Assembly (NCBI GenBank): GCA_049325255.1 | Contig: JBMOMW010000057.1 | Location: forward strand, 3,804 to 67,803 | DNA length: 64,000 bases | Reading direction: 5' to 3' | Source: Pseudomonadota bacterium | GTDB lineage: Bacteria > Pseudomonadota > Alphaproteobacteria > UBA11222 | Shown: piece after piece, positions 14,126 through 37,313 of the stretch | Position numbering within the stretch: the stretch's first letter is position 1 | How the letters are laid out: each line of letters opens with the position of its first letter | Notes under the pieces: generated by a model | Database searches by the model: none | Seen by the model: only the letters and a program-made list of their open reading frames with translations | Told to the model about the DNA's origin: nothing | Position numbers and translations under genes: made by a program

Positions 14126-14881
14126 TTAAGTTCCGTGGCCCGGGATTTTTCCCAGCTTTTCATGCAACGCTTGGTGTGTCCCGCATTCTTCGGAGACCGA
14201 GCATTCGTTGCACGCGAAATTACCGGTCTTTCGCATATCCTTGATGGTAACACGCGCGCCGTCGACCGTAATACCCTGATCGCGCAATGTTTGCAGGGTG
14301 CGTGAGAAAGTTTCTTTTTCCATGTGCAGGCGCGAGGCTATCAAGGCTTTGGTATAAGGCAATTCAAACCCGCGCGGATCAAGATTGTACAGCACACAAA
14401 GTTTTTGCAGATAGCAGGCCACCATTTGGGCAGCGGACATGGCCGTAAGATGTTCTACGTCTACCTGCGCGCTATGCAGCCGGTCAGCGATGCCGGCCAG
14501 TAATTTTTCCGCGATATGATCGAAATCTTTGAAGTGCTTCCGCATCCAGGCAATGGGAATTTCAAGCAGCGAACAATCTTCGACCGCGCGCGCATTCATG
14601 GCATGCTCAGCCTGCCCGGCAACGACCTCATCGGCGTTAATGGAATCCCCTGCAATCAGGATATCATTGGTGACCTCACGCCCGCCCGGGGTCTCCCGGA
14701 AAATTTGCATGGCGCCCCGGCAGATCACGTAAAAATGCGTGACTTTATCTCCGTGCATAAACAGGAACTGTCCGCGGGTACAGCTAATTATCCGGCTGTT
14801 GCGGACGAGAATGGCGCCATCATCCAGCGAAAGATCTGAAAACAGAGGAAGCGCCCTGAGTGTATCCAGTGCGGCGGTCAT
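14126..14881 (-). CDS. Crp/Fnr-family transcriptional regulator (paralog 1) with C-terminal CxxC-x5-C-x2-H extension
   Basis: cNMP-binding-like domain plus an HTH with the E--SR recognition motif (ETFSRTLQTLRD) seen in FNR-type TTGAT-box binders. No N-terminal FNR Cys cluster. Instead ends in FACNECSVSEECGTH. About 80% identical to the ORF at 36558-37313. Confidence 0.85.
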   Translation of the reverse strand: MTAALDTLRALPLFSDLSLDDGAILVRNSRIISCTRGQFLFMHGDKVTHFYVICRGAMQIFRETPGGREVTNDILIAGDSINADEVVAGQAEHAMNARAVEDCSLLEIPIAWMRKHFKDFDHIAEKLLAGIADRLHSAQVDVEHLTAMSAAQMVACYLQKLCVLYNLDPRGFELPYTKALIASRLHMEKETFSRTLQTLRDQGITVDGARVTIKDMRKTGNFACNECSVSEECGTHQALHEKLGKIPGHGT

Positions 14882-14978
14882 TTTATCCCCCCAAGATCAA
14901 AATACCCGTATAGAGTATGCATGATACCTGCATAGAATATAAAAAGTCAATTTTTATCCGCCAACCGCGAGGTGCGCC

Positions 14979-15653
14979 ATGTGCTTTTCAGCTGAAGTAA
15001 GTTTTACCGCCGCAGCCATCCTCCTGCCTGCGGGCTTGGCGGCGATCCAGCGCGCCTATAGGACAGATCGGCGCTATGTTCCTATCGCCGCGCTCCCCCT
15101 GTTATTTGGCGTACAGCAGGCATTGGAAGGCGCGGTATGGACGTCAAACGGAAATTCCCAACTGGTGGAGCAATTTTCGCTCGCCTATATGTTTTTTTCC
15201 TGGTTGGCGTGGCCTGTTTGGGTACCATTTTCGGTGTATTTCCTGGAGCCTGCCCGGCGCAAGCCTCTATTTGTCATCCTCGCCATTTTGGGCGGCATAT
15301 TTGGCGGGGCGCAATATTTTCCATATTTTGCCCATGACAATTGGCTGGTCACAACATTCCTGGGACAGGCAATCAGTTACGGGGGCAATGAAATATTTGA
15401 TTACATCATCGGGCGTCCGGCTGCTTATACGCTCTATGTAAGCCTCGTAATCGGATCGTTATTGCTGTCCTCTCATTCAAACATCCGGATTTTTGGCGTG
15501 CTGGTTTTTATGGTGCTGGCCGTCACCTATATATTCTTTGCTTATGCTTACATTTCGGTGTTTTGTTTTGGCGGCGGGCTGATCTCACTTTATCTGGTCT
15601 GGATGCTATTTGGCGGCGGCAAACAATCACATAGCCCCGCAAGGCCGATATAG
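14979..15653 (+). CDS. hypothetical polytopic membrane protein
   Basis: 224-aa ORF with about 6 hydrophobic helices. No family recognised. Confidence 0.5.
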   Translation: MCFSAEVSFTAAAILLPAGLAAIQRAYRTDRRYVPIAALPLLFGVQQALEGAVWTSNGNSQLVEQFSLAYMFFSWLAWPVWVPFSVYFLEPARRKPLFVILAILGGIFGGAQYFPYFAHDNWLVTTFLGQAISYGGNEIFDYIIGRPAAYTLYVSLVIGSLLLSSHSNIRIFGVLVFMVLAVTYIFFAYAYISVFCFGGGLISLYLVWMLFGGGKQSHSPARPI

Positions 15654-15696
15654 GCTGGTTGCTGTATCAGCGTAACATTATGGGAGAAAGACGACG

Positions 15697-15915
15697 ATGA
15701 TGATGAATAACATGATGGTGGGATACGGTTTCAGTCACTGGCTGATGTTCGTAATAATGGCTGCCCTGATACTCTATCCGGTTGGCAGGATCCTTGGCCG
15801 CATTGGTCTGTCGCCATTCTGGTCAGTTGTGGCGATGATTCCGTTCCTGAATCTGATCGGACTTTGGGTTCTGGCTTTCACCCAGTGGCCGCGCGATGGT
15901 ACGGGTGATGCTTAG
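15697..15915 (+). CDS. small hypothetical membrane protein (72 aa, 2 TM)
   Basis: Compact ORF with two hydrophobic helices and good codon usage. Sits between the membrane protein and the AraC gene. Confidence 0.4.
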   Translation: MMMNNMMVGYGFSHWLMFVIMAALILYPVGRILGRIGLSPFWSVVAMIPFLNLIGLWVLAFTQWPRDGTGDA

Positions 15916-15940
15916 TTCAATATGTAGCATGGGTTAAAAT

Positions 15941-16642
15941 ATGTGGAGCGGCGATTTCGTTTTTGGCGAAATGTGGGCGGGGTATCGCGGGCCGGCGTAT
16001 GATACATCTGAACATGCGCATCTCGCGTTGCAAATTGCCCTGGGTGTCAGCGTACCCGTACAGATTGAAGATCAGGGGTCGATGCTTTCGGCATCTTCAG
16101 TCATGATCAGACCTCGTGTACGGCACAAGTTGGTCAGTGCTGGCGAAGAAGTTCTCCTAATTTTTATTGAGCCTCAATCGAACCTGGGAAGGGTATTGAT
16201 TCGCACAATGGGATCCGCTGCTATCTGTATAGCGCCGTCCCCGGTTGCAGATACACTACAGATGGCCCAGCCGCTTCAAAATACCATGGCGCAACTTGTT
16301 ATTTCTCTTGTAGACCCCATACCGTATCACGACGACCGTGTTGCAACCGCCATTCGTATCCTTGCGAACGAGCCGGGACCACAGGCAATCCACAAAGCTG
16401 CGGTTACAGTGGGGCTTTCACCATCGCGTTTGAGGGCGCTCACCCGCGCTGAAACCGGCGCGCCGTTGTCGCAATGGCTGCTCTGGAAAAAACTCGAGCA
16501 TGCCGCACGCGCTATCTCGGCTGGGGCTTCGCTTGCGGAGGCAGCCCACGCAGGAGGCTTTGCAGATCAGCCGCATTTTTCACGGGCGATGCGCCGCATG
16601 TTTGGCCTGACGCCAGGCGCCGCAGCTTTAGCACTACGGTAA
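15941..16642 (+). CDS. AraC-family transcriptional regulator
   Basis: C-terminal HTH_AraC signature GFADQPHFSRAMRRMFGLTP. Confidence 0.7.
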   Translation: MWSGDFVFGEMWAGYRGPAYDTSEHAHLALQIALGVSVPVQIEDQGSMLSASSVMIRPRVRHKLVSAGEEVLLIFIEPQSNLGRVLIRTMGSAAICIAPSPVADTLQMAQPLQNTMAQLVISLVDPIPYHDDRVATAIRILANEPGPQAIHKAAVTVGLSPSRLRALTRAETGAPLSQWLLWKKLEHAARAISAGASLAEAAHAGGFADQPHFSRAMRRMFGLTPGAAALALR

Positions 16643-16668
16643 AAACGTTCCAGGTGGACGAAATGACT

Positions 16669-17590: not shown

Positions 17591-17632
17591 GTTGGATAAA
17601 GCCGTTCCCGACTTCAAATTCACAGAGCGGCT

Positions 17633-18340
17633 TCAAAACCAGAAGCGGATTCCCGCAACCAGCGAGGGGACATTGATATCCTCGCCCTCATCGCGCGCGA
17701 TGTCTGCGGTTTGCCCCAGTTTGCGCTCCCAATTGACGCCGATATAGGGGGCGAATTCGCGCCGTATTTCATATCGCAGGCGCAACCCCAACTCGATGTC
17801 ACTGACGCCCGAACCGATGCCGCGCCCGCTTGTGTCCTGCGCCGCCAGATTAACCTCGAACGAGGGTTGCAGGACCAGACGCTGGGTCAGCAGCAGTTCA
17901 TATTCCGCCTCGAACCGGGCCGACAGTTCGCCCTCATTGCTGAGAAACGCCGCCGCATCGATTTCGAAATATTGCGGCGCCAGGCCCTGAAGACCGATCA
18001 CCGCGAAACCGCGTTCCTGATCCGGTTCGGGGTCGTAGCGAAGCCCCGCCTGCACATCGAAAAAATCTGTCACAAGATGCGAATAGAGCAGCTGCACTTC
18101 GGCTTTTTCCGTTTTGCCTCCGGCAAGTTTTTCGCCCTCGGTTTTCAGCCACGCCTTGTTATAGTCGCCGCCAGCCCAGCCCTGCGCCTCCCATTTCAGG
18201 CTGTTCCTGCCAGCATGGTTCCGGTACTCAAACTGGTCCGCCTGGAAGAAGCTGTAGTTCGGCTCATGTTCTTCCATCGCGGAAGCCTGACTTGTCAGCA
18301 TACAGAGTAATAGTGCAAGTCCGCTGATGCGCCTATTCAT
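17633..18340 (-). CDS. pcoB: copper resistance outer-membrane protein B (CopB/PcoB family)
   Basis: Signal peptide MNRRISGLALLLCMLTSQASA. CopB-family beta-barrel sequence. Overlaps the 3' end of the multicopper oxidase gene. Confidence 0.75.
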   Translation of the reverse strand: MNRRISGLALLLCMLTSQASAMEEHEPNYSFFQADQFEYRNHAGRNSLKWEAQGWAGGDYNKAWLKTEGEKLAGGKTEKAEVQLLYSHLVTDFFDVQAGLRYDPEPDQERGFAVIGLQGLAPQYFEIDAAAFLSNEGELSARFEAEYELLLTQRLVLQPSFEVNLAAQDTSGRGIGSGVSDIELGLRLRYEIRREFAPYIGVNWERKLGQTADIARDEGEDINVPSLVAGIRFWF

Positions 18341-20030
18341 GACCCGTCTCCCTATTGGCGGCAACCGGGCCTTCGACAATCACCTTGCGCATCATGCCCG
18401 TCGCCATGTGATAGAGCAGATGGCAATGAAACGCCCATTCGCCCATCGCGTCGGCGGGTACGTCCACGCTCAGGGATTGCCCGGGCGGCACATTGACCAC
18501 ATGTTTCAGCGGATTGAACTTTTTCTTGCCGGTGTCGAGTTGCATCCACATGCCATGCAGATGCATGGGGTGGCTCATCATGGTCTGATTGACAAATGTG
18601 AAGCGCACCCGCTCGCCATATTTCAGGCGGATGGGTTCGGCATCGGAAAATTTCACGCCGTCGATGGACCAGAAATAGCGCTCCATATTTCCGGTCAGCT
18701 TCATCTCGATCTCGCGGTCCGGTGCGCGATATTCCGCATAGGGTTTCATGGCTTTCAGATCGCCATACACCAGAACCTTGCCGCCCGGCTTTGCGGCTAT
18801 GGGCGCGAGGCCGCTCTGCATGCCAGCTTTTTCCGTCCCCCCCATATCCATGCCAGGCATGGCGCTGTGATCCATTCCCGCCATCCCGGCCATGGCGCCA
18901 TGATCCATTGCGGGCGCTGTATCCGCGCCCGGCGCTGCCCCATGATCCATGCCGCCCATATCCATGCCCATATCCGCCATGGTCAGTTGCGGGCGCGGGC
19001 GCAGCGCCGGAATTTCCCCGCTCATGCCTTGCGCAGGCGCCAGCGTTGCGCGCGCATAGCCGGTGCGGTCGAGAGATTCAGCGAAGATCGTAAAAGCTTT
19101 TTCTTCTTCAGGCTGAACAATCACGTCATAGGTTTCAGCAACCGCGATGCGCAGTTCATCCACCGGAACCGGCTGCACATTATTGCCATCGGCCTGCACC
19201 ACGGTCATTTTCAGGCCTGGAATGCGCACATCGAAATAGCTCATGCTGGAGCCGTTGATCAGGCGCAAGCGCACCCGCTCGCCCGGTTTGAACAGGCCGG
19301 TCCAGTTTTGCGCGGCGCTTTTACCGTTGATCAGGAATGTATAACCGCTGACATCGGAAATATCCGTGGGGGTCATGCGCATCTGCCCCCACGCGGCGCG
19401 ATCCTTCACGGTTGCCGCCAATCCCTTTTCCGAAACATCCCTGAAAAAGGTTCCAACGGTGCGTTGCGCATAATTATAATAATCGCTGTTTTTCTTCAGA
19501 TGGCCAAGGATGGCTTCGGGCTTTTCATCCGTCCAGTCCGACAGCATCACCACATAGTCGCGATCATATTTGTACGGCTCGCGCTTTGCAGGCGTGATGA
19601 TTATCGGGCCATACATGCCTTCCTGTTCCTGCAGGCCGGAATGGCTGTGATACCAGTAGGTGCCAGCCTGTTTGATCCTGAAGTTATAGGTGAACGTCTC
19701 GCCCGGTTTGATGCCGGGAAAGCTGATACCCGGCACGCCGTCTTGCGTGAACGGCAGCAAAATCCCGTGCCAGTGAAGGGACGTATCCGTGTCCATCTTG
19801 TTGGTCACATTGATGGTCACCTCCTCGCCCTCCGTAAATCGCAGGGTTGGTCCGGGTATCTGCCCGTTGATCGCCATGGTCAGGCGCTCCCCCCTGTCAT
19901 AGCCCGCGCGCATCTCATCAATCGTCAGGTTATAGGTTCCAGCGAACGCGCCGGAACCGGTGAGCAGTGTAAAGAGTGCTGCAAGGCCCACAAAAGCTAT
20001 GTAAAAATTGCGCATGATCATCCCCTTCAT
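18333..20030 (-). CDS. pcoA: copper resistance multicopper oxidase (CopA/PcoA)
   Basis: Copper-binding motifs HWHG, HSH, HPMHLHG, HCHLLYH. Met-rich insert MADMGMDMGGMDHG... 565 aa. Confidence 0.9.
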   Translation of the reverse strand: MKGMIMRNFYIAFVGLAALFTLLTGSGAFAGTYNLTIDEMRAGYDRGERLTMAINGQIPGPTLRFTEGEEVTINVTNKMDTDTSLHWHGILLPFTQDGVPGISFPGIKPGETFTYNFRIKQAGTYWYHSHSGLQEQEGMYGPIIITPAKREPYKYDRDYVVMLSDWTDEKPEAILGHLKKNSDYYNYAQRTVGTFFRDVSEKGLAATVKDRAAWGQMRMTPTDISDVSGYTFLINGKSAAQNWTGLFKPGERVRLRLINGSSMSYFDVRIPGLKMTVVQADGNNVQPVPVDELRIAVAETYDVIVQPEEEKAFTIFAESLDRTGYARATLAPAQGMSGEIPALRPRPQLTMADMGMDMGGMDHGAAPGADTAPAMDHGAMAGMAGMDHSAMPGMDMGGTEKAGMQSGLAPIAAKPGGKVLVYGDLKAMKPYAEYRAPDREIEMKLTGNMERYFWSIDGVKFSDAEPIRLKYGERVRFTFVNQTMMSHPMHLHGMWMQLDTGKKKFNPLKHVVNVPPGQSLSVDVPADAMGEWAFHCHLLYHMATGMMRKVIVEGPVAANRETGHE

Positions 20031-20596
20031 CTGGCAAAATCGATACGGCCCAACATACCGGACTCATAGTGCCCCGGCATGTTGCAGGCGAATTCAATCT
20101 CCATGGCTTTGGTGAATTTCCATACCAGTTCTTTGCTCTCACCTGGCGCCAGCAGGACGGTGTTGGGATCATCATGGCGCATGGGCATATCCTTGCCCTT
20201 TTTGGCATGGCTCATGCCGCCCATATCCATTTTGGAATGGTCCATGTTCATCTTCTCCGGGTCGATGCCGGTTGGGGTGAGCATGCCCATCTCCATCATC
20301 TCCGCCATTTCCTTGCGGTGCTCCGTATGAGCGGCCAGGGTGTCGATGCTGAACTCGTGCAGAAATTCGCCGCTGTTCTTCAGAACGAAACGAACGGTTT
20401 CGCCCTGCTTCACCGATATAGCGTCCGGTTCATAGTAATTATCAGCCAAATTGACTTCGATGGTGCGGGTGGCGGACGCGGGCGCGCCAGGCGCGCCAAA
20501 TTCGTAACCGTGACCGGCGGCGGCGAGCGCCGGAGCGGCAAGGCCGGAGACAACGGCGCTGAGTGCTACAGCCAGGGGTAAAAAGACGGGATTCAT
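20027..20596 (-). CDS. cupredoxin-domain copper-binding protein, Met-rich
   Basis: Signal peptide. CNMPGHYESGM is a type-1 copper site-like motif. Met-rich stretch MAEMMEMGM...MNMDHSKMDMGGM. Confidence 0.75.
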   Translation of the reverse strand: MNPVFLPLAVALSAVVSGLAAPALAAAGHGYEFGAPGAPASATRTIEVNLADNYYEPDAISVKQGETVRFVLKNSGEFLHEFSIDTLAAHTEHRKEMAEMMEMGMLTPTGIDPEKMNMDHSKMDMGGMSHAKKGKDMPMRHDDPNTVLLAPGESKELVWKFTKAMEIEFACNMPGHYESGMLGRIDFAR

Positions 20597-20692
20597 GGTG
20601 TATCCTTTGCATTGATAGATGATCGGCCTGACGCACGCTTGGGCGCGGCAATTGGGCCGGAATGTCTGGGAATGTTTAGCGGCGTGCGCGGA

Positions 20693-21037
20693 TCAGGCGC
20701 GGCGCGGCGGATGAAATGGCGGCTCGCCGCGATACACGGCCGTGATGCGCGCTAACATAGGCGCAACGCGTTCCGTCGCCCGCAACCTTACTTGAGCCGG
20801 GGGGCGCTCATTCATAATGACCGGCACACAGGCCTGCATACAGCAGGTCCCGCCGGCTTTTGCGTCATCTTGCGAATGATCGGGTGTTGGATGATGGGAT
20901 GCGGCTGCATGGGTGTGAGCAGCGTCTATCTTCATATGATTTGTAGTCAAATGGGCTGCAGCCGGTGACGGCCCCAGCAGGGCGCTTACCACCAGCGAAA
21001 CGGTAAAGGCAATGATAATGCCTACAGACCACCGCAC
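20693..21037 (-). CDS. small secreted His-rich CC-motif protein (DUF2946-like), possible metal binding
   Basis: N-terminal signal/TM segment. HxxxH-rich region and a GTCCMQAC motif. Copper-cluster context. Confidence 0.45.
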   Translation of the reverse strand: MRWSVGIIIAFTVSLVVSALLGPSPAAAHLTTNHMKIDAAHTHAAASHHPTPDHSQDDAKAGGTCCMQACVPVIMNERPPAQVRLRATERVAPMLARITAVYRGEPPFHPPRRA

Positions 21038-23250: not shown

Positions 23251-23264
23251 ATTGATTTGCGTCA
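23251..23264. promoter_or_regulatory. FNR-like box TTGATttgcGTCAA upstream of the CFA-synthase-like gene
   Basis: Matches 9 of 10 positions of the TTGAT-N4-ATCAA consensus. About 100 nt upstream of the ORF start. Confidence 0.4.
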
Positions 23265-23354
23265 ATGTCGCCATTGCGGCTGTATTGATACCTTAACCCC
23301 CATGGGGTAATTTTCAGGAACGCTATCCGATTGCCCTGTTGCTCATAACGGGCC

Positions 23355-26057: not shown

Positions 26058-26333
26058 CTAGCGGCGTTGACTGTCCAGAACCTGGATTAATTCGTCGATC
26101 TTTTGCTTTCGTTCCTTAAGCGATCCGTTGTGAAAAGCGTGCGTGACGCAACTTTGCAAATGCTCGCGCAGCACCTCCTGCTCCACTCTATCAAGGGCGG
26201 CGCGCGCGGCATTGATCTGGGTCAATATTTCGATGCAATAACGGTCTTGCTCAACCATGTTGCGCACGCCGCGCACCTGCCCCTCGATCCGGGCGAGACG
26301 GTTCAGGCAGCCTTTTTTAGTTTTCATATCCAT
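26058..26333 (-). CDS. csoR: CsoR/RcnR-family metal-sensing transcriptional repressor, copper-type C-H-C ligands
   Basis: DUF156 fold. Ligand positions YC(IEIL) and H-x3-C (EHLQSC) match the Cu(I)-sensing CsoR W-X-Y-Z fingerprint. Confidence 0.75.
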   Translation of the reverse strand: MDMKTKKGCLNRLARIEGQVRGVRNMVEQDRYCIEILTQINAARAALDRVEQEVLREHLQSCVTHAFHNGSLKERKQKIDELIQVLDSQRR

Positions 26334-26362: not shown

Positions 26363-26497
26363 TGGCAAGAGGATTGTTGCTTGAATTGGCATGCTAGCCT
26401 AGGAAAATGTCTGGGGCTTTGACTTGGCTCAACATCCAGGCGTGTAAGTTGCTGTCAAATCACGCAACTGATGGCAGAATGCAAAAGGAGCACGCCA

Positions 26498-28681
26498 ATG
26501 ACTGATCATGCTCACCCACACGCGCATCATGGCGCCGCCGCCGCCGTGGCCCCTGGCGGCATGGCCAAAGACCCGATCTGCGGCATGGTGGTCAACAAGG
26601 CGGGGGCTGTTGCGGCCCATCTGACGTCAGAAAGAAGCGCGCGGATCTATTATTTTTGCAGTTCCGGCTGCAAAAGCACCTTTGAGGACCCGGAGCGCGA
26701 ACTTAAATCCATGCGGACGCGGGTCGCCGTCGCGCTGACCGGCGTGCTTGCATTGGCCATGTTGCGCGCGGGCGCATTCATCGTGCTCGCCACAGGCGCC
26801 ACCATCGTAAGTTGGGCGCCGATCCCGGCATTGCCCTGGTTCACCTGGGGGGTATGGTTGTTCATTCTGGTGACGCCGGTGCAATTCATCGGCGGCTGGG
26901 GATTCTATAAAGGCGCATGGGCGGCGCTGCGCTCTGGTTCCATCAATATGGATTTCCTGATCGCGCTCGGCACCAGTGTCGCCTATTTTTTCAGTGTCGC
27001 GGTGGTGTTCTTCCCGGATGTGCTTCCCGTGAAGGTGGATGAGCGGGAAGTTTATTTCGAGGTTTCGGCGGTCATCATCGCCTTTGTGCTGCTCGGCAAA
27101 TATATGGAGGAGATCATCAAGAAGCGATCCTCGGCGGCGGTGCGCAAGCTGATGGATCTGCGGCCCGCCGTCGCGCATGTGGTCCGCGACGGCAAGGAAG
27201 AGGAAATCCCCGCCGAGGCGATCATGGCGGGCGAGATTGTTGTGGTGCGCCCCGGCGAGCGCATTCCAACCGATGGCGACGTGCTGGAGGGTGCCTCAAG
27301 CGTGGACGAATCCATGCTTACGGGCGAATCCATGCCGGTGGAAAAAGCGCCGGGGGCCAAACTGATCGGCGGCACGCTGAACCGCAGCGGCATGCTGCGC
27401 TTCACGGCGACGCGCATCGGCAGGGAAACGGCGCTGGCGCAAATTATCAAGCTGGTGGAAGAGGCGCAGACCAGCACGGCGCAGGTGCAGCGCCTGGCTG
27501 ATCAGGTCACCGGATATTTCGTGCCCGCCGTGGTGGGGGTGGCCTTTCTGGCGTTCTTTGGCTGGTGGCTGGCCGGGGATTTTCCGCAGGCGCTGTTATC
27601 TTTCATTGCGGTGCTGATCATTTCGTGCCCCTGCGCGCTTGGGGTGGCGACGCCCGCTGCGCTGATGGTGGGGGTTGGCAAGGGGGCGGAGGCCGGCATT
27701 CTGATCCGCGGCGCCGAGGTGCTGGAGCGGGCGCGTAATTTGAACATGATCGTGTTCGACAAGACCGGAACCCTGACGCGGGGCGCGCCGGAAATTACCG
27801 ATATCGTGCCGTTTGGCGGGCAAAATGAAGCCGATGTGTTGCGGCTTGCGGCGGCGGTGGAGGTTGGCTCGGAGCATCCGCTGGGCGAGGCGATTGTGCG
27901 GGCGGCACAAATGCGCAGCCTGGCATTGCCCGCCGTCACCACATTTAACAGCATTGCGGGGCACGGCATTTCCGGGACTGTGGAGGGGCAGTCTATCCTG
28001 CTTGGCAATCGCCGCTTACTGTTACGGGAAAAAGTCAGCATCGAAAATGCCGAACCGGATATGATCCGGCTGGAGCGCGAAGGCAAAACCGCGATGCTGG
28101 TGGCGGCTGGCGGCGTGCTGATCGGCGTCATCGCGGTGGCCGACACCATCAAGCCCGAAGCAAAAGAGGCGGTGGCGGCGCTGCGCCAGGAGGGCATAGA
28201 GGTCATCATGCTGACCGGCGACAATGAACGCACGGCGCAGGCGATTGGCCGTGAACTTGGCATTGACCGGATCATCGCCGAGGTGCTGCCCGGCGACAAG
28301 GCGAAAATCATCAAAGACATGCAGGCGCAAAACAAAATGGTGGCCATGGTGGGCGATGGCGTGAATGACGCCCCCGCGCTGGCCACCGCCGATATCGGCA
28401 TCGCCATCGGTTCGGGCTCGGACGTCGCCAAGGAAACCGGCGGCATCATCCTGATCAAGAATGACGTGCGCGAGGTGGTGCTGGCGATCCGCCTGTCGCG
28501 CCTGACGCTGCGCAAGATCAAGCAGAACCTGTTCTGGGCGTTTGTCTACAACACAATCGGCATACCGGTTGCGGCGCTTGGATATCTGAACCCGATTATC
28601 GCGGCGGCGGCGATGGCGCTCAGCTCGCTTTCCGTCATCGCCAATTCGGCGCTGCTCAAGCGGGTGAGGTTGTCACTATGA
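26498..28681 (+). CDS. copA: copper-translocating P1B-type ATPase with N-terminal His-rich/YHS domain instead of a CxxC HMA domain
   Basis: CPC motif (ISCPCALG), [16 protein letters not shown]-terminus HAHPHAHHG...DPICGMVV...YYFCSSGCK is a YHS/TRASH motif. RBS AAAAGGAG lies before the ATG at 26498. Confidence 0.9.
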
Positions 28682-29088: not shown

Positions 29089-29121
29089 GTGCTGCACACT
29101 GGCAAAACACAAGGAGATGAG

Positions 29122-31485
29122 ATGACGGCTATACCCGGCCCAGCAGAATTGGCGGCCCTCGACGCCTATTGGCGGGCGGCGAATTATTTGTCCGCCGGGC
29201 AGATTTATCTGCTCGATAACCCGCTGCTGCGCCAGCCGTTGACGCTTGAACATATCAAGCCGCGTTTGCTGGGGCATTGGGGCACTGTGCCGGGTTTGAA
29301 TTTTATTTACGCGCATCTGAACCGGATCATCCGGCGGGACGATCTTGATATGATTTATGTGACCGGGCCGGGGCACGGTGCGCCGGGTATTCTCGCCAAT
29401 GTCTATCTGGAGGGAACCTATAGCGCGTTCTACCCGGAAATCTCGCAGGACGAAGAGGGGTTGCGGAAATTTTTCCGGCAGTTTTCGTTTCCCGGCGGCA
29501 TCCCCAGCCATACCGCGCCAGAAACGCCGGGATCGATCCATGAGGGCGGGGAACTGGGCTATGCCCTGTCGCATGCCTATGGCGCGGCGTTCGATAATCC
29601 CGGTCTGATTGTGGCCTGTGTGGTGGGTGACGGCGAGGCTGAAACCGGGCCGCTCGCCACCGCATGGCATTCGAATAAATTCCTCAATCCGGCGCGCGAC
29701 GGCGCAGTGCTGCCGATCCTGCATCTCAATGGTTACAAGATCGCCAATCCCACGGTGCTTGCCCGCATCCCGCAGGCGGAACTGGAAAGCCTGTTCATCG
29801 GCTATGGCTATGAACCCTATATCATTGAAGGCAGTGATCCGACGCTTATGCATCAGCACATGGCCGAAATCATGGATAAGGTCATTGCACAGATCAAAAC
29901 CATCCAGCATGACGCGCGCGTAAATGGCGTGCGCGAGCGCCCGCGCTGGCCGGTGATTATTCTGCGCACTCCCAAGGGATGGACCGGCCCGAAGCAGGTG
30001 GATGGATTAAAGACCGAGGGATATTGGCGCTCGCATCAGGTGCCGGTGGCGGAACTGGCAAAAAAGCCGGGACATGTCGCGCTATTGGAACAATGGCTGC
30101 AAAGCTATCGTCCGCAGGAATTGTTTGATGAAACCGGACGTTTGCTGCCAGCCCTTGCGGCGCTGGCGCCTTCGGGCGCGCGGCGGATGGGCGCCAATCC
30201 GCATGCCAATGGCGGTCTGCTGCTGAAAAGCCTGAAGCTGCCGGACTTTCGCGATTATGCTGTCAAGGTGGTGACACCGGGGGAAGCAGAAGGCGAATCA
30301 ACCCGTGTCATGGGCAATTATTTGCGCGATGTAATGAAAGATAATCTCGCCACGCAGAATTTCCGCGTCTTTGGCCCCGATGAGACCGCATCGAACCGGC
30401 TGGGCGCACTGTTCGAGGTAACCGATCGCGCCTGGATGGGCGAACGCGATGCCGAAGACGATCATCTGGGGCCGGACGGCCGCGTCATGGAAATCCTGAG
30501 CGAGCATACCTGTCAGGGCTGGCTGGAAGGTTATCTGCTGACCGGGCGGCATGGGCTGTTTTCCAGCTATGAGGCGTTCGTGCATATTGTCGATTCGATG
30601 TTCAACCAGCACGCCAAATGGCTGAAGGTCAGCAGCGCCAGCATTGCCTGGCGGCGGCCGATTGCATCGCTGAATTACCTGCTGACTTCGCATGTCTGGC
30701 GCCAGGACCATAATGGTTTCAGCCATCAGGATCCGGGTTTCATCGACCATGTGGTGAACAAATCCGCCGATGTGGTGCGGGTGTATTTCCCGCCCGACGC
30801 CAATACGCTGTTATGGGTCACGGACCACTGCCTGCGCAGCCGCAATCTGGTGAATGTCATTGTCGCGGGTAAACAGAAGCAGCCGCAATGGCTGGATATG
30901 GAGGCGGCGATTTTACATTGCCAGGCCGGCGTCAGCATCTGGGAATGGGCCAGTACCGACCGGGACGCCGAACCGGATGTGGTGCTGGCCTGTTGCGGCG
31001 ACGTGCCGACGCTGGAGGTTTTGGCCGCCGTCGAGATTTTGCGCACCCATCTGCCGGAACTGAAAATCCGCGTCGTCAACATCATCGATCTGATGCGCCT
31101 GCAACCGCCCGAAGAACATCCAAACGGCCTGCCGGACGCCGAGTTCGACACGCTGTTCACCACGGACAAGCCGGTCATCCTTGCCTATCACGGCTATCCC
31201 TGGCTGATCCACCGTCTGACATACCGGCGCACCAATCACGGCAATCTGCATGTGCGCGGCTACAAGGAGGAAGGCACAACGACAACCCCGTTCGACATGG
31301 TGGTGCGCAACGATATTGACCGCTATCACCTGGTCGAGGACGTGATTGACCGGGTACCGGGGCTGGGCTACCGGGCGGCCTATCTGCGCCAGTTAGTTGG
31401 CGAGAAACTGATCGCGCATAAGGACTATATCGCGCGGCACGGCGATGACATGCCGGAAGTGCGCGACTGGAAATGGACGTGCTGA
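29122..31485 (+). CDS. xfp: phosphoketolase (xylulose-5-P/fructose-6-P phosphoketolase)
   Basis: N-terminal [27 protein letters not shown] and [15 protein letters not shown](A)FDNP are hallmark XFP motifs. RBS AAGGAG at 29111. Confidence 0.9.
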
Positions 31486-31500
31486 GATGGCTATGGCTGC

Positions 31501-32611
31501 ATGAATATTCTGACGATTAATGCAGGCAGTTCCTCTGTCCGTTTTGAATTGTTCACAGTAGTTGATGACGTTCCGCAATCGTTGGGACAGGCAATGTCGG
31601 CGGCAGGTGATCCAACCACTCTGTTCGCGCAGTTGGCGGCAGAAGCGGGGCTGGGGATAGAACCACCGTCCGCCGTCGCCCATCGCTGGGTGCATGGCGG
31701 ACCACAGGTGCGCAAGGCGGCGTTGATCGACGCGAATATAGAAGCGGCGCTTGCACAGGCCGCGCCTCTGGCGCCGCTGCATGCGCCCGCAAGCCTGGCC
31801 TGGCTTGCCCATTGCCGCACAATCATGGGGCCAGATGTGCGCCAGATTGTCGTTCCTGACACAGCGTATTTCGCCAGCATGCCGGATGTTGCAGCTAATT
31901 ACGCCTTGCCGCGGGAACTTTCCGCGCTGCACGGCCTTCGCCGTTACGGCTTTCATGGTCTGGCGCATCAGTCCCATGGTCACCCAATGGCTTGCCAGCC
32001 GTGGCGGCGATTTTGGCGATGCAAAGGTGATTTCATTGCAATTGGGTGCAGGGTGTTCCATCACCGCGAGCCGTGGTGGCGCGCCCGTGGACACCTCGAT
32101 GGGCTTCACGCCGCTGGAAGGCCTGGTCATGGCCACCCGCGCGGGCGATGTGGATGCGGGTTTGCTGTTTTATCTGCAACGCGAAGCAGGGATCGATGCA
32201 GCGCAACTGGAAACGCTTTTACAAAAGGAATCGGGACTGCTCGGCCTTTCGGGCGTCAGTGGAGACATGCGGGTTCTGCTCGCCGCTGACAAGTCCGCGG
32301 CAAAAAGCGCCATTGCGCTTTATTGCTATCGCGCGAAAAAATATATTGGCGCCTATCTTGCGGTGCTGGGCGGCGCCGACGCTGTGCTGTTTGGCGGCGG
32401 CGTTGGTGAGAACAGCCCGGAAATCCGTGCGCGCATACTTGCAGGAATGGGATGGTGCGGCCTTAAGCTCGACACCGCCGCAAATCAGGCGCCAAAGTTG
32501 CAAGGCGGACGTATCAGCACCGCCAATAGCAAAATCGAAATCGCCGTGATCCGCGTCGATGAAGCGCACATCATGGCGCAAGCCGCCGCTGATCTGCTAC
32601 GGGGAAAGTAA
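31501..32611 (+). CDS. ackA: acetate kinase, interrupted by a +1 frameshift near 31975-31985 (pseudogene or sequencing error)
   Basis: ORF 31501-32289 matches the AckA N-terminus (MNILTINAGSSSVRF..., RYGFHGLAHQ) and then loses similarity. ORF 31751-32611 in the next frame continues VTQWLASRGG...ISLQLGAGCSI...SMGFTPLEGLVMATRAGDVD...GGGVGENS. Confidence 0.7.
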
Positions 32612-32859: not shown

Positions 32860-34251
32860 ATGACGCATCTCAACTTTCTTGGCGGTGTTGGAACTGTCAC
32901 TGGATCAAAATATCTGCTTGAGGCGGCCGGCCGGAAAATCCTCATTGATTGCGGGTTGTTTCAGGGGCTGAAGCAATTGCGGCTGCGCAACTGGGACAAG
33001 TTCCCGGTCAATCCCGCCCGGATCGATGCGGTGGTGCTGACCCATGCGCATCTTGATCATTCGGGCTATCTTCCGCTGCTCGTTAAAAACGGTTTCAGGG
33101 GGCCCGTGTTTTGTACGTCCGGCACCCGGGATTTGTGCGGCATCCTGCTGCCAGACTCAGGATATCTGATGGAACGCGACGCAGATTTCGCCAACCGGCA
33201 TGGTTTCTCCAAACACAAACCCGCATTGCCGCTATATACGGAGAAAGAAGCGCGCGCCTGCCTTGAGCAACTCGTTACAAAGAAATTTAACCGGCATTTT
33301 GATGTGACCCCTGAAATACAGGCCCAGTTCCATCCGGCGGGACATATTCTCGGCGCGGCGATCGTCACGCTCACCATAAACAAAACGAGGCTGGTCTTTT
33401 CCGGCGATCTTGGCAGGACCGGTGATCCGATCATGCACGATCCGGCGCATATTGCGCAGGCGGATTATCTGGTTGTTGAATCTACCTATGGCGACCGGAC
33501 GCACGAACCAGCCGATCCGCAGGATGCGCTGGCCGAAGTGATCGCCGCCACGGCGCAGCGCGGCGGTGTAATTCTGATCCCGACATTTGCCGTCGGACGG
33601 GCGCAGACACTGCTCTATCATCTGGAACAGCTCAAACGCGCGCGCCGCATCCCGGATCTGCCCGTCTATCTCGATAGCCCCATGGCGGTGAATGCAAGTG
33701 ACGTATTTTGCAACTATTTCGGCGAACATAGGTTGAATGCGGAACAGTGCCGTTCGCTGTGCGGCGTGGCGCGCTATGTGCGGGACGCCGAAGAATCAAA
33801 AAGCCTTGACCGGGACAAGATGCCAAAGGTGATCCTCGCGGCGAGCGGCATGGCGACCGGTGGCCGCGTCCTGCATCATCTCAAGGTCTTTGCGCCCGAT
33901 CCGCGCAACACGATCCTGTTTACAGGTTTTCAGGCTGCCGGAACCAGAGGCGCGGCGATGATGGCGGGGGCGCAAAGCGTCAAAATCCACGGCGGCTATG
34001 TACCGGTTCTGGCGGAGGTGAAAAATCTCCGGATGCTTTCGGCGCATGCGGACCGCCCGGAAATCCTGACCTGGCTCAGGCATTTTGACAGACCGCCACG
34101 CATGACATTTATCACCCATGGCGAACCGGTGGCGTCCGATGCGCTGCGGCTTGCGATTGAAGAACAGTTCAAATGGACCACGCGCGTGCCCGAGCATATG
34201 GAACGCGCTACGCTAGAGAACATTGAGCACACGCATGTCAAATCCACATAA
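32860..34251 (+). CDS. MBL-fold metallo-hydrolase with beta-CASP/RNA-metabolising domain (RNase J/CPSF-like)
   Basis: HAHLDHSG motif, beta-CASP region, C-terminal RMMBL-like segment. 463 aa. Confidence 0.8.
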   Translation: MTHLNFLGGVGTVTGSKYLLEAAGRKILIDCGLFQGLKQLRLRNWDKFPVNPARIDAVVLTHAHLDHSGYLPLLVKNGFRGPVFCTSGTRDLCGILLPDSGYLMERDADFANRHGFSKHKPALPLYTEKEARACLEQLVTKKFNRHFDVTPEIQAQFHPAGHILGAAIVTLTINKTRLVFSGDLGRTGDPIMHDPAHIAQADYLVVESTYGDRTHEPADPQDALAEVIAATAQRGGVILIPTFAVGRAQTLLYHLEQLKRARRIPDLPVYLDSPMAVNASDVFCNYFGEHRLNAEQCRSLCGVARYVRDAEESKSLDRDKMPKVILAASGMATGGRVLHHLKVFAPDPRNTILFTGFQAAGTRGAAMMAGAQSVKIHGGYVPVLAEVKNLRMLSAHADRPEILTWLRHFDRPPRMTFITHGEPVASDALRLAIEEQFKWTTRVPEHMERATLENIEHTHVKST

Positions 34252-35770
34252 TCTTCCCGGACATGCGCGGCCGCACACGCTACGCCTGCGGCGGCTGGGT
34301 ATCGACACGCATCAGGAGCTTGTCGTTTATATGCGGCAGGATTGTCATATCTGCCGGTCTGAAGGTTTTGCGGCGCAGGCGCGCATCCAGGTGACAGCCA
34401 ACGGCCACAGCATCATTGCAACACTGGGCAAGATCACCAGTGATTTGCTGGGTCATGGCGAGGCAAGCCTGTCTGAAAGCGCGTGGCGGCTGCTGGGGGT
34501 GGCGGAGGGCAGTGAGATTTCGTTCGCGCATCCGCCGCTTGTTGAATCGCTTGGCCTGATGCGGGGCAAAATCTATGGGCAGCGTCTGGATACGCGCGCC
34601 GCGCAGCAGATCATTCAGGACATTGTTGCGGGCCGCTATGCGGATGTGCATCTGTCCGCCTTTATCACGGCCTGTTCGGGGCGCGCCCTGAACCGCAACG
34701 AGATGGCCGCACTGACCAAGGCGATGGTTACAACAGGAAGCAGGCTGGACTGGGGAAACCAGCCGATTGCCGACAAACATTGTATTGGCGGCCTGCCAGG
34801 CAACCGCACAACGCCGATCGTGGTGGCGATTGCGGCGGCCTGCGGGCTTATCATCCCAAAAACCTCTTCACGGGCGATCACCTCTCCGGCGGGAACGGCG
34901 GATACGATGGAGACGCTGACCACCGTTGATCTGGATGTGGCCGCCATGCGCCGCGTGGTGGAGCAGGAGGGCGGCTGCATGGTCTGGGGCGGGGCTGTCG
35001 ATCTTAGTCCGGCCGATGATATTTTAATCCGTGTAGAGCGGATGCTTGATCTGGACAGTGAAGGTCAACTGGTTGCCTCTGTGCTGTCCAAGAAAATTGC
35101 CGCAGGCGCCACCCATGTGGTGCTTGATCTGCCCGTCGGACCAACCGCAAAACTGCGGACCATCACCGACGGGCATCATCTGACGAGCGCCCTGCGCGGC
35201 GTGGCCGAGGCCATGGGTCTGCATGTGCGTGTGACTGTAACGGATGGAACACAGCCGGTAGGGCGCGGCATTGGCCCCTCACTGGAGGCGCGTGACGTGC
35301 TGGCGGTGTTGCGCAATGATCCATCGGCGCCACAGGATCTGAGAGATCGCGCCGTCGATCTGGCGGCAATCCTGCTGGAGCTGGTGTTGCAGCTTTCTGC
35401 CAGAGAGGCCCTGGCCAAAGCCACGGAGGCGTTGCGCGATGGCAGCGCATGGCGGAAATTTGAGGCGATCTGCATGGCGCAGGGTGGCCTGCGCGAACCG
35501 CCACAGGCCACCCATAAACATCCGGTTCTGGCCGCGCATTCGGGTACGGTCACAAATATTGATAATCGCGTCCTGGCGAAAATCGCCAAGCTCGCAGGCG
35601 CGCCAAGCGCCAAGGCGGCGGGCCTTGAATTTCATACACCACTTGGCACGCAGGTTGCGGCAGGCATGCCGCTCTATACGGTGCATGCGCAATCCAGGGG
35701 TGAACTCGCCTATGCGCTTGACTATGTCCGCGCGCATCCCGGCGTAATCCGGCTGGAGGCCGACGCCTGA
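34223..35770 (+). CDS. thymidine phosphorylase-family protein (AMP phosphorylase-like, about 500-aa type)
   Basis: Glycosyl-transferase family 3 motifs (DKHCIGGLPGNRTTPIVVAIAAACG, SSRAITSPAGTADTMETL). Overlaps the MBL gene 3' end, suggesting an operon. Confidence 0.8.
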   Translation: MSTRMSNPHNLPGHARPHTLRLRRLGIDTHQELVVYMRQDCHICRSEGFAAQARIQVTANGHSIIATLGKITSDLLGHGEASLSESAWRLLGVAEGSEISFAHPPLVESLGLMRGKIYGQRLDTRAAQQIIQDIVAGRYADVHLSAFITACSGRALNRNEMAALTKAMVTTGSRLDWGNQPIADKHCIGGLPGNRTTPIVVAIAAACGLIIPKTSSRAITSPAGTADTMETLTTVDLDVAAMRRVVEQEGGCMVWGGAVDLSPADDILIRVERMLDLDSEGQLVASVLSKKIAAGATHVVLDLPVGPTAKLRTITDGHHLTSALRGVAEAMGLHVRVTVTDGTQPVGRGIGPSLEARDVLAVLRNDPSAPQDLRDRAVDLAAILLELVLQLSAREALAKATEALRDGSAWRKFEAICMAQGGLREPPQATHKHPVLAAHSGTVTNIDNRVLAKIAKLAGAPSAKAAGLEFHTPLGTQVAAGMPLYTVHAQSRGELAYALDYVRAHPGVIRLEADA

Positions 35771-35788
35771 AACTGTTGCAGGATTTTA

Positions 35789-35802
35789 TTTGACCCAGAT
35801 CA
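35789..35802. promoter_or_regulatory. FNR/FixK-type box TTGACccagATCAA upstream of the nitroreductase gene
   Basis: Read directly, about 130 nt upstream of 35931. Confidence 0.5.
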
Positions 35803-35930
35803 AATCCGCAGACCAGATCATGTATTAGGCTGCCCTTGTCGTAGGGAGGAATTCTTTATGCCGGCTCCATCCGTATTTTTTGATATTTCCAGCAGAACGC
35901 GGCGGTCTGTTCGCATGAAAAGTTCAGGAC

Positions 35931-36542
35931 ATGAATAAATCTTCGTTTGCGCCCAATCACCCCAATAATCCGATGAGCGTGATGGACGCAATTTATCATC
36001 GCCGCTCGGTGCGCGATTACACGCCTGAGAAAGTCAGCGAGGCCAGCATCCATATGCTGATGTACGCGGCCATCCAGGCGCCCACCGCCATGCATGAGGA
36101 ACCGTGGGCTTTTGCTGTTATTCAGGACCGGCACTTGCTGGACCGTCTGTCTGAAACCGCCAAGCGGACAATATGGCTGCAGGCGCAAGGCGAGGAAAAT
36201 TCAGGGCTGGCGCGACGCTCCGTAAATATTATCAGCGATCCGTCATACAATGTTTTCTATAATGCGGGCGCGCTGATTGTTATTTATGGCAAGCCGCTGG
36301 GGCCGTTCGTGGCTGCCGATTGCTGGCTTGCGGCGGAAAATCTGATGCTTGCCGCATGCGCCGCCGGACTTGGAACGTGCGTGATCGGTCTTGCCGTGCC
36401 GGCGCTCAATACACCCGAATGGAAGAATCTGCTGGATATTCCATTGGAAATGACGGCCCATGCGCCAATTCTGCTGGGCTATCCGGCCGGTACGCCACCA
36501 CCACCCGCCCGTAAATCTCCGGAAATGATATGCTGGAAATAA
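35931..36542 (+). CDS. nitroreductase-family protein
   Basis: Nitroreductase fold similarity (IYHRRSVRDY..., conserved C-terminal GxxGxG-like region). 203 aa. Confidence 0.8.
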   Translation: MNKSSFAPNHPNNPMSVMDAIYHRRSVRDYTPEKVSEASIHMLMYAAIQAPTAMHEEPWAFAVIQDRHLLDRLSETAKRTIWLQAQGEENSGLARRSVNIISDPSYNVFYNAGALIVIYGKPLGPFVAADCWLAAENLMLAACAAGLGTCVIGLAVPALNTPEWKNLLDIPLEMTAHAPILLGYPAGTPPPPARKSPEMICWK

Positions 36543-36557
36543 ATATTCCGGAATTGG

Positions 36558-37313
36558 TCAGCCGCTGTGCCTTATGTGTTTATCCAGCTTTTCATGCAGC
36601 ACACGGTGTGTTCCGCATTCATCAGCCATTGAGCATTCGCCGCACGCAAAGTTATCGGCCTTGCGCATATCCTGGATGGAGACGTGCGTGCCAGCAACCG
36701 TAATCCCGTGATCCCGCAGGGTTTGCAGCGTGCGCGAGAAAGTTTCCTTTTTGATCCGCAGACGCGAGGCGATCAGGGTTTTCGTGTAAGGCAATTCAAA
36801 CCCGTGCGGGTCGAAATTATACAGCACACAGAGCTTCTGAAGATAGCATGCGACCATCTGCGATGCGGACATGGTGGTAAGCTGTTCCGCCTCGAGCTGT
36901 GTGCCATGCAACCGGTCGGCGATGCTTGCCAGCAGTTTCTCCGCCATATGGTCGAAATCCTTGATATGCTCGCGCATCCAGGAAATCGGGATTTCGAGTA
37001 GTGAGCAATCTTCCACTGCGCGGGCATTCATCTGATGCGCGTCCTGACGGGCAAGCACTTCATCGGCATTGATGCTGTCCCCGGCTATCAGAATATTGCT
37101 GGTGACTTCGTGTCCGCCCGGCGTCTCACGGAAGATTTGCATGGCGCCCCGGCAGATCACATAAAAATGGGTGATCTTGTCCCCGTGCATAAACAGGCAC
37201 TGTCCGCGTTTGCAGATGATGATCCGGCTGTTGCAAACCAGCAGGTCGCCGTCCGCCCTGCTGATATCCGAAAACAGGGGAAGCGCCTGAAGTGTATCCA
37301 ATGCGGTAGTCAT
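36558..37313 (-). CDS. Crp/Fnr-family transcriptional regulator (paralog 2) with C-terminal CxxC-x5-C-x2-H extension
   Basis: About 80% aa identity to 14126-14881. Same E--SR HTH (ETFSRTLQTLRD). C-terminal FACGECSMADECGTH. Confidence 0.85.
   Translation of the reverse strand: MTTALDTLQALPLFSDISRADGDLLVCNSRIIICKRGQCLFMHGDKITHFYVICRGAMQIFRETPGGHEVTSNILIAGDSINADEVLARQDAHQMNARAVEDCSLLEIPISWMREHIKDFDHMAEKLLASIADRLHGTQLEAEQLTTMSASQMVACYLQKLCVLYNFDPHGFELPYTKTLIASRLRIKKETFSRTLQTLRDHGITVAGTHVSIQDMRKADNFACGECSMADECGTHRVLHEKLDKHIRHSG

Follow-up and report, generated by a model that had tools for sequence, protein, structure and literature searches.

We analysed a 64,000-nucleotide stretch of DNA from an alphaproteobacterium of the UBA11222 lineage (assembly GCA_049325255.1, contig JBMOMW010000057.1, positions 3,804 to 67,803; hereafter the window), which carries two genes for Crp/Fnr-type regulators on its minus strand, 22,432 bp apart (copy 1 and copy 2; Table 1). 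Both open reading frames (ORFs) exist where the initial annotation had placed them, and their products can be aligned without gaps by BLASTP, with 191 of 245 residues identical (78%, close to the ~80% given before). Between the two genes lie a copper operon, a P-type ATPase gene and a nitroreductase gene, among others, as well as several FNR-type boxes. The two genes are paralogues, both retained, from an unnamed branch of the Crp/Fnr superfamily in Alphaproteobacteria. On balance, we regard their products as probable FNR-like sensors with an Fe-S cluster labile to O2 or nitric oxide (NO), which would drive a low-oxygen regulon.

Both copies belong to the Crp/Fnr superfamily by fold and by domain content. 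Pfam cNMP_binding (PF00027, 6.6e-14) and HTH_Crp_2 (PF13545, 2.5e-10) were found in each, and searches of the PDB and with Foldseek returned Crp/Fnr proteins only, the nearest solved structures being a structural-genomics protein from Ruegeria pomeroyi (3fx3/3h3z, 28% identity), P. aeruginosa Dnr and Aliivibrio fischeri FNR. The AlphaFold2 (AF2) model displays an ordinary Crp fold, with a mean confidence (pLDDT) of 77, and a short helix-loop-helix extension that carries the C-terminal motif described below. As had been noted, the E--SR recognition helix (ETFSRTLQTLRD) is retained in both copies, and the N-terminal Cys cluster of FNR is missing; indeed, a conserved N-terminal Cys triad is found neither in the two copies nor in the rest of the family. 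In a search for a named subfamily, none of the NCBIfam models reached its cut-off for the two regulators: FtrB scored 76 bits (cut-off 211), Fnr 57–58 bits (cut-off 228) and FixK 35 bits (cut-off 300). The window proteins are thus not canonical FNR, and with these models below cut-off and four Cys invariant in the family, they do not belong to the cluster-free FixK/FtrB/Dnr/NnrR class either. Because an exact-sequence look-up of both window proteins gave no record, context for the regulators was taken from their homologues.

The C-x2-C-x5-C-x2-H motif after the helix-turn-helix (HTH) was confirmed exactly as first described, as CNECSVSEECGTH in copy 1 and CGECSMADECGTH in copy 2. We searched a large protein database, which gave 351 clusters at E <= 1e-10, and scored the motif in the best 120. 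The C-x2-C-x5-C triad is present at the same place in all 120 of these, and the His in 103 of them; the remaining homologues have Tyr, Arg or Gln at the position of His236. In a 45-sequence alignment, C156, C224, C227 and C233 are invariant, and C54, C162, S228, H43, H93 and E143 are nearly so. A scan of the loci, with one genome per species, yielded 59 of them, all alphaproteobacterial: metagenome-assembled genomes (MAGs) labelled Rhodospirillaceae, Rickettsiales and similar, in addition to cultured Asticcacaulis species and Sneathiella. Uncultured Rhodospirillaceae or Alphaproteobacteria supply the closest relatives (91–93% identity), which makes an organism of this kind the probable source of the window, and the motif is kept down to approximately 40% identity, with its loss seen in three relatives only (L044, L055 and L059). 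The alignment that had been proposed as a check on the motif therefore shows that it marks a conserved, unnamed alphaproteobacterial family and not a characterised named subfamily. The motif is also a plausible Fe-S site. Proteins of the P0350/P0391 type (~505–530 residues) join a Crp/Fnr module to an N-terminal domain, which in Asticcacaulis sp. W401b is annotated as nitrate/nitrite-sensing (NIT), and end in a different Cys-rich tail (C-x-x-C-D-x6-C, then more Cys).

A profile search against 1.84 billion cluster representatives gave 188 matches at E <= 1e-30. A C-terminal C-x2-C-x(4-6)-C is carried by approximately 115 of the best 150, and many matches read C-x2-C-S-x2-[FY]-P-C and end soon afterwards without the His. 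This sister clade is larger than the His-bearing family of the window; its proteins are unnamed and come from alphaproteobacterial MAGs, and cluster look-ups of its representatives returned no informative names. In 34 sister-clade representatives, the sole invariant Cys are the equivalents of C156 and of the triad. Since C156, C224, C227 and C233 are invariant in both clades, it is the set of four Cys that is conserved as a unit, with His236 added in the subfamily of the window. Cys156, which lies in the helix before the HTH, would thus be a better candidate for a fourth ligand than His236, as it is invariant whereas the His is subfamily-specific and absent from the sister clade.

In all six sister-clade loci examined (L065, L066, L067, L069, L070 and L071, with the regulator at 8001 or 6001), the regulator gene is divergent from DsbD_2-ccoNOQP-ccoGH(IS), and in two of the six, FNR-type boxes lie in the intergenic region shared by the regulator and the cco genes. 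A position divergent from the cbb3 oxidase operon is the classical place of FnrL, FnrN and FixK-type O2 regulators. A conserved convergent gene of 121–140 residues, with no Pfam match, follows the regulator in each of these six loci, and in L065 and L066 it carries its own FNR-type box. In L067, a complete-looking 2.36-Mb contig where the sister-clade regulator adjoins ccoNOQP, a second family member is found approximately 2 kb away (10572–11336, minus strand; tail CCIHCSSITGGC, x2/x6 spacing) among HSP20, Host_attach, universal stress protein (USP) and CBS genes with three perfect FNR boxes. A split between oxidase-linked and stress-linked paralogues thus recurs outside the lineage of the window.

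The FNR-type boxes that had been reported in the window (TTGATTTGCATCAA) were confirmed, one exact copy standing at 32742 and another at 44040, and boxes of this type are enriched. We searched for TTGAT-N4-ATCAA with at most one mismatch. The window holds 10 boxes against 1.94 expected (approximately five-fold; the maximum in any of the 100 shuffles was 5), and the window together with the 59 related loci (60 loci, 962 kb) holds 171 against 23.8 expected (approximately seven-fold; maximum 36). These 171 include 26 upstream of regulator genes, 10 upstream of tandem USP genes, and 7, 6 and 5 upstream of nitroreductase, ATPase and HSP20 genes, respectively. With up to two mismatches the enrichment vanishes (33 against 24.8 in the window), and this relaxed search found no site upstream of copy 1. 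All window boxes are located in or next to promoter regions; eight of the ten are intergenic, and the other two fall within small ORFs (the CsoR-like gene and a 96-residue ORF), upstream of the next gene. On its LemA side, the box at 21187 lies upstream of LemA-TPM-TPM. No copy-1-type gene has a box, whereas copy 2 of the window has one. The region between copy 1 and DUF6629 (14882–14978) contains, instead of an FNR box, the inverted repeat ATGCA-N7-TGCAT (14917–14933), possibly bound by a different regulator, and an AraC-type gene is found at a distance of 1 kb.

At the DNA level, the two regulator genes are 76.7% identical, with longest exact runs of 26 and 18 bp. The homology stops at the ORF borders, beyond which the flanks are approximately 25% identical, the random level, and substitutions at codon positions 1, 2 and 3 number 43, 28 and 105. 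This divergence and the weight of third-position substitutions point to an old duplication under purifying selection and not to a recent repeat. Each copy also has orthologues with a characteristic neighbour: those of the copy-1 type are always beside DUF6629 (L006–L009, L012 and L014), and those of the copy-2 type are convergent with a nitroreductase gene (L010, L011, L013, which is 95% identical to copy 2, L015 and L052). At least four MAG species have retained both types, and some of them have a third paralogue as well. Residue 144 is His in every copy-1-type protein and Gln in every copy-2-type protein, a difference fixed between the paralogues at the position of the fourth cluster ligand of Bacillus Fnr (see below). 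L054, with 64% identity to either copy, stands between nitroreductase and DUF6629, an arrangement that looks like the state before the duplication.

In MAG GCA_049323435.1, the two types are again encoded on one strand, at a distance of 38.7 kb; the cop, LemA, TPM and cyclopropane-fatty-acid (CFA) synthase genes by its copy-1 type are syntenic with the window, and the outer flank differs. The synteny breaks immediately outside copy 1 (window 11741–14126 compared with L001 10757–20582), where formamidase and Pfam-less ORFs are found in the window, and ABC-transporter and type II secretion/pilus genes in the MAG. Copy 1 thus stands at the edge of a conserved block.

Across the family, the commonest neighbours of the regulator genes are nitroreductase (17 loci), P-type ATPase (14), tandem USP (12) and proteins similar to short-chain dehydrogenase/reductase or acetoacetyl-CoA reductase (11 and 8). 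They are followed by HSP20 (9), acetate kinase (8), Host_attach/baeRF12 (8), PhaC (7), phosphate acetyl/butyryl transferase (6) and OsmC (6). The features of the window are collected in Table 1. Its acetate kinase is split into ORFs at 31501–32289 and 31751–32611 (plus strand), which are in different frames and match different parts of Pfam Acetate_kinase; the split reflects a frameshift, a pseudogene or a fault of the assembly. Four further ORFs were noted. One, of 110 residues (region 37698–38621, plus strand), has a signal-peptide-like start and a Met-rich stretch (GGMMMMN) and precedes the fusion of S30AE and cold-shock domains, while an opposite-strand ORF of 290 residues (37740–38612) has no Pfam match and is probably spurious. 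A His/Met/Cys-rich ORF of 114 residues (20693–21037, minus strand) heads the cupredoxin-CopA-CopB operon, and a Met-rich membrane protein of 72 residues (15697–15915, plus strand) is encoded between DUF6629 and the AraC gene. Neither of the latter two has a Pfam match, and counterparts of 112 and 72 residues hold the same positions in the related MAG.

Table 1. Features of the window, with positions counted from its first nucleotide.
Feature	Position	Strand	Remarks
Crp/Fnr regulator, copy 1	14126..14881	-	251 residues; lineage beside DUF6629; H144; own promoter without FNR box
C-terminal motif, copy 1 (CNECSVSEECGTH)	14174..14212	-	C224-N-E-C227-S-V-S-E-E-C233-G-T-H236; proposed Fe-S ligands
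Recognition helix, copy 1 (ETFSRTLQTLRD)	14279..14314	-	E190, S193, R194
Cys156, copy 1	14414..14416	-	helix before HTH; invariant in family and sister clade; candidate fourth ligand
DUF6629	14979..15653	+	divergent from copy 1; conserved partner of copy-1 lineage
Copper operon	17633..21037	-	114-residue His/Met-rich ORF, cupredoxin, multicopper oxidase CopA, CopB
FNR box TTGATTTGGATCAA	21187..21200	.	divergent promoter, 68 bp from LemA start and 156 bp from 114-residue ORF/cupredoxin/CopA/CopB operon
FNR box, 1 mismatch	23252..23265	.	96 bp upstream of CFA synthase gene
CsoR/RcnR-family metal-sensing repressor	26058..26333	-	divergent from ATPase; likelier copper sensor of the block
FNR box, 1 mismatch	26212..26225	.	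within CsoR-like ORF, 252 bp upstream of P-type ATPase gene
P-type ATPase with YHS domain	26471..28681	+	homologue neighbours regulator in 14 loci
Phosphoketolase, then acetate kinase	29089..32611	+	acetate kinase in two overlapping ORFs
Perfect FNR box TTGATTTGCATCAA	32742..32755	.	111 bp upstream of beta-CASP metallo-RNase gene
Beta-CASP metallo-RNase, then thymidine-phosphorylase-like gene	32860..35770	+	
FNR box, 1 mismatch	35790..35803	.	134 bp upstream of nitroreductase gene
Nitroreductase	35931..36542	+	most conserved family neighbour, 17 loci
Crp/Fnr regulator, copy 2	36558..37313	-	251 residues; lineage convergent with nitroreductase; Q144; FNR box 95 bp upstream of ATG
C-terminal motif, copy 2 (CGECSMADECGTH)	36606..36644	-	C224-G-E-C227-S-M-A-D-E-C233-G-T-H236
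Recognition helix, copy 2 (ETFSRTLQTLRD)	36711..36746	-	identical to that of copy 1
Cys156, copy 2	36846..36848	-	
FNR box, 1 mismatch	37402..37415	.	95 bp upstream of copy 2; likely autoregulatory
Perfect FNR box	37637..37650	.	54 bp upstream of 110-residue secreted Met-rich ORF, followed by hibernation-factor gene
Ribosome hibernation factor (S30AE) fused to cold-shock domain	38055..38621	+	
Perfect FNR box	44040..44053	.	between divergent AMP-ligase and APH-like genes
FNR box, 1 mismatch	49203..49216	.	between divergent chaperonin and HSP20 genes
HSP20/alpha-crystallin	49277..49807	+	homologue neighbours regulator in 9 loci
FNR box, 1 mismatch	55695..55708	.	50 bp upstream of flavin monooxygenase gene

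FNR is the textbook O2-sensing transcription factor, and the cluster ligands of the E. coli protein are Cys20, 23, 29 and 122. We fetched and translated E. coli fnr for comparison of the motifs. Its C20-Q-D-C23-S-I-S-Q-L-C29 and the triad of the window have the same x2/x5 spacing and similar residues ('CQDCSISQLC' versus 'CNECSVSEEC'); in common are an acidic residue before the second Cys, a Ser after it and then an aliphatic-then-small pair. The pattern C-x-[DENQ]-C-S-[ILVMA]-[SAVTC]-x-x-C fits FNR as well as 74 of the 120 family members. Canonical FNR also resembles the window proteins in its E--SR helix, its TTGAT-N4-ATCAA boxes and its single remote Cys; the A. fischeri structure (5e44) compares with a window protein at a TM-score of approximately 0.70, and cbb3 oxidase genes lie beside the sister-clade regulators as they do with canonical FNR/ANR. 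The proteins differ in where the ligands stand: the triad is N-terminal in canonical FNR but C-terminal in the window proteins, and the remote Cys belongs to the sensor domain in the former (C122) and to the DNA-binding domain in the latter (C156). Since C-x2-C-S-x4-C copies the ligand spacing of the FNR N-terminus, a familiar chemistry has probably been moved to a new place, and the new sensing mode that had been suggested for the motif is correspondingly improbable.

The initial annotation had also held that a C-terminal Cys cluster is foreign to characterised FNR proteins, and here Bacillus Fnr provides a counterexample: it is the only characterised Crp/Fnr class with a C-terminal cluster, a [4Fe-4S] held by C227, C230, C235 and D141 (PMC3520743). 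We recovered the B. subtilis protein (P0121), aligned 25 Bacillus-type sequences and performed a profile-profile comparison (hhalign) and a joint MAFFT alignment. With hhalign, the window family and Bacillus Fnr show 23% identity at E = 3e-9, with the first two Cys in register. In the joint alignment, C224, C227 and C233 of the window align with C227, C230 and C235 of B. subtilis, D141 falls on H144, and S153 falls on C156. The two groups are alike in their Crp/Fnr fold, in having no N-terminal cluster and in carrying a Cys triad in a short extension directly after the wing. This relatedness is generic, as at ~23% identity the window proteins are no closer to Bacillus Fnr than to other Crp/Fnr proteins, and the two do not form one subfamily. 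The spacing is C-x2-C-x4-C in Bacillus Fnr and C-x2-C-x5-C in the window, the position of D141 is occupied by H144 (copy 1) or Q144 (copy 2), and the window proteins, unlike Bacillus Fnr, have the extra invariant Cys156 and a His three residues past the last Cys. The hosts are Bacillota in one case and Alphaproteobacteria in the other. In Bacillus Fnr, the cluster is expected to work on DNA binding at the hinge and not on dimerisation (PMC3520743, and Reents 2006 cited there), and by analogy a cluster in the window proteins would be expected to act on DNA binding at the same place.

Membership of the family, conservation of the motif, enrichment and placement of the boxes and the conserved neighbourhoods were observed directly; from these results together we infer a metal, a set of ligands, a signal and a mode of action (activation rather than repression). 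At low O2, C224, C227 and C233 would hold a cluster, most likely a [4Fe-4S], that is labile to O2 and perhaps to NO, and the fourth ligand would most likely be the invariant C156, with H236 or residue 144 able to tune or replace it. Next to the hinge, such a cluster would link the tail of the protein to its DNA-binding domain, and the tethered tail would lock the dimer in its DNA-binding form, as in Bacillus Fnr. The holo-protein would then bind TTGAT-N4-ATCAA boxes through its E--SR helix and activate a local regulon of low-oxygen or dormancy type. This regulon would comprise nitroreductase, phosphoketolase and acetate kinase, the beta-CASP RNase, the P-type ATPase, HSP20 and the chaperonin, the hibernation factor, LemA/TPM, CFA synthase, probably the cop operon, and copy 2 itself. 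With the cluster destroyed by O2, the regulon would be switched off. As their recognition helices are identical, both paralogues should read the same boxes, and the differences at residue 144, in the residues that flank the Cys and in autoregulation suggest different sensitivities; the paralogues probably differ in the signal range to which they respond, or form a cascade.

Several observations weigh against this interpretation. It is drawn from sequence and genomic context, and Cys4 or Cys3His sites are equally typical of structural zinc. The AF2 model is only moderately confident in the tail (pLDDT 71–77). The three relatives that lack the triad still keep C156 and C162; co-loss with the triad was thus rejected as an argument for a ligand role of C156, and the case for that role is its invariance. 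H43, H93 and H144 are conserved and co-vary, switching together to Gln, Tyr and Arg in L044, L050, L055 and L059, three of which also lack the triad, and these sensor-domain His could be the true sensory site. As for the boxes, their enrichment shows that some E--SR-type regulator acts, not which one, and the promoter of copy 1 is without a box. The three His, placed in the sensor domain and at the dimer-helix end, could also mark a further site for a ligand, perhaps a metal or haem.

Some of these points could be accommodated by a Cys cluster that is a structural zinc site stabilising the C-terminal extension, with sensing left to the N-terminal effector domain (for example of haem/NO as in Dnr, or of a small ligand), or with no sensing by the protein and control exerted at the level of its synthesis, as for FixK and FtrB. 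Cys4 and Cys3His are classical zinc ligand sets, the nearest relatives in sequence are cluster-free (FtrB at 76 bits, 3fx3 and Dnr), the conserved, co-varying His are those of the sensor domain and of the dimer-helix end, and the three natural triad-less relatives persist, one of them (L044) with its upstream FNR box. We nevertheless consider a zinc site unlikely, as the motif copies the cluster loop of FNR down to the Ser after the second Cys and is positionally equivalent to the Fe-S ligands of Bacillus Fnr, all six sister-clade loci place the regulator in the niche of an O2 sensor linked to ccoNOQP, and FixLJ-type genes are not among the conserved neighbours. Thiol switches also exist in the Crp/Fnr superfamily, as in CprK, FLP and FixK2, and a metal-free switch of this kind, in which oxidation links the tail to Cys156 or Cys162 and inactivates the protein, would make use of the six conserved Cys (C54, C156, C162 and the triad) and suit the redox and stress genes of the regulon. 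This is less probable still, because it does not require all four Cys to be invariant, and three close Cys with a remote invariant one, in FNR-like spacing, fit a metal cluster better.

Two proposals of the initial annotation fare worse. It had offered the Cys/His cluster as an Fe-S or metal site; the Fe-S part is plausible and the site strongly conserved, but copper, to which the 'flanking' cop genes had pointed, is poorly supported. CopB, CopA, the cupredoxin, the CsoR-like protein and the YHS-type P-type ATPase are in fact encoded between the two copies. Binding of Cu(I) by the Cys3His, with the regulators as copper sensors for these genes, would be in keeping with the synteny of the copy-1 lineage with DUF6629, AraC, methyltransferase, CopB and CopA genes in several genomes, with the FNR box in the divergent promoter region of the cop operon and with the P1B-type ATPases that neighbour the regulator in 14 loci. 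However, a dedicated CsoR-family repressor adjoins the ATPase gene, only the copy-1 lineage is near cop genes, and genes for hypoxia and stress surround the regulators across the family (nitroreductase, USP, HSP20, acetate kinase and PhaC). Moreover, cbb3 operons, where FixI-type ATPases serve oxidase assembly, are the setting of the sister clade, which has these four Cys as well, and no Crp/Fnr copper sensor was found in the literature searched. Copper sensing was thus rejected on genomic context and appears very improbable. We give even less credence to the idea that the copies act mainly as direct repeats for RecA-dependent deletion or excision of the 22-kb block. The two copies are indeed on the same strand at the distance given above, but this role was rejected on identity and orthology: the 76.7% DNA identity is confined to the ORFs and broken into short exact runs (26 bp at most), most substitutions fall on third codon positions, and in at least four MAG species the copies have separate orthologues, each with a conserved neighbour of its own, the two being 38.7 kb apart in one MAG. 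In addition, no integrase or transposase was seen among the annotated ORFs between 11.7 and 44 kb.

If FNR-like Fe-S sensing is correct, finding the canonical triad C-terminally would mean that the loop holding the cluster can move as a module, and it would provide a natural test of how the position of a cluster is coupled to DNA binding. It would also suggest a likely hypoxia regulator and regulon for abundant uncultured Alphaproteobacteria, whose genes are now labelled only 'Crp/Fnr family'. A link between copper handling and a low-oxygen regulon is physiologically sensible, since copper is needed for the cbb3 oxidase and Cu(I) is more toxic at low O2. Cultured Asticcacaulis strains carry members of the family, and the prediction is thus open to experiment.

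At the level of the regulon, the closest parallel is the lxa locus of Burkholderia cenocepacia, which is activated by low oxygen, has an FNR-like motif in front and a Crp/Fnr gene inside, and was likened by its authors to the mycobacterial DosR regulon (PMC3721108). With the family neighbourhoods it shares nitroreductase, acetate kinase, a metal-dependent RNase, a cation ATPase and alpha-crystallin, as well as USPs, polyhydroxyalkanoate synthase, acetoacetyl-CoA reductase and phosphate acetyl/butyryl transferase. The gene content of the family loci matches that of a low-oxygen cluster of lxa/DosR type with FNR-like motifs in front, a likeness between regulons and not between protein families. 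Burkholderia FNR proteins keep the N-terminal Cys cluster (PMC4505428), so that the analogy holds at the regulon level only: the lxa regulator BCAM0287 is a Burkholderia FNR with an N-terminal cluster, whereas the window regulators are of the C-terminal-cluster type and present in two copies. DosR, in turn, is a two-component response regulator, unlike the window proteins. For the paralogues, three FNRs of P. putida offer a precedent, as they read similar boxes and owe different O2 sensitivities to differences near the cluster (PMC4505428); they are canonical proteins with N-terminal clusters, and a difference in sensitivity between the window copies is inferred from them by comparison.

Parallels to the ligand pattern are also found outside the superfamily. 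The Cys3His [2Fe-2S] site of IscR ends in C-x5-C-x2-H. In WhiB1, a [4Fe-4S] cluster is held by C9 and C37-x2-C40-x5-C46, that is, by a remote Cys and a C-x2-C-x5-C as proposed for the window proteins, and this cluster senses gas in a dormancy context (PMC3390391); WhiB1 differs in being actinobacterial, with an unrelated fold and mode of DNA binding. Within Crp/Fnr proteins, the characterised cluster placements are only two, N-terminal in Proteobacteria and C-terminal in Bacillus, and our search for a proteobacterial Crp/Fnr protein with a C-terminal cluster returned only the Bacillus work from the searchable literature, the coverage of which is incomplete; the clade itself was not found described there. 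Bacillus already provides a Crp/Fnr protein with a C-terminal Fe-S site, and canonical FNR provides the ligand pattern. What appears to be new is an unnamed, sizeable alphaproteobacterial clade that would unite the two and add an invariant Cys in the DNA-binding domain, together with one sub-branch that has gained a His, is duplicated and seems tied to an lxa-like regulon. More tentatively, and with slightly less than even confidence, we suggest that this clade represents a third FNR-type architecture, in which the C-x2-C-S-x4-C loop has moved to the C-terminus and is paired with a Cys of the DNA-binding domain. Beside ccoNOQP, it would serve large and mostly uncultured lineages of Alphaproteobacteria as their main O2 sensor, and its His-bearing sub-branch would be a duplicated specialist for a dormancy regulon, perhaps with Cys3His or switchable ligation that gives each paralogue a different O2/NO range.

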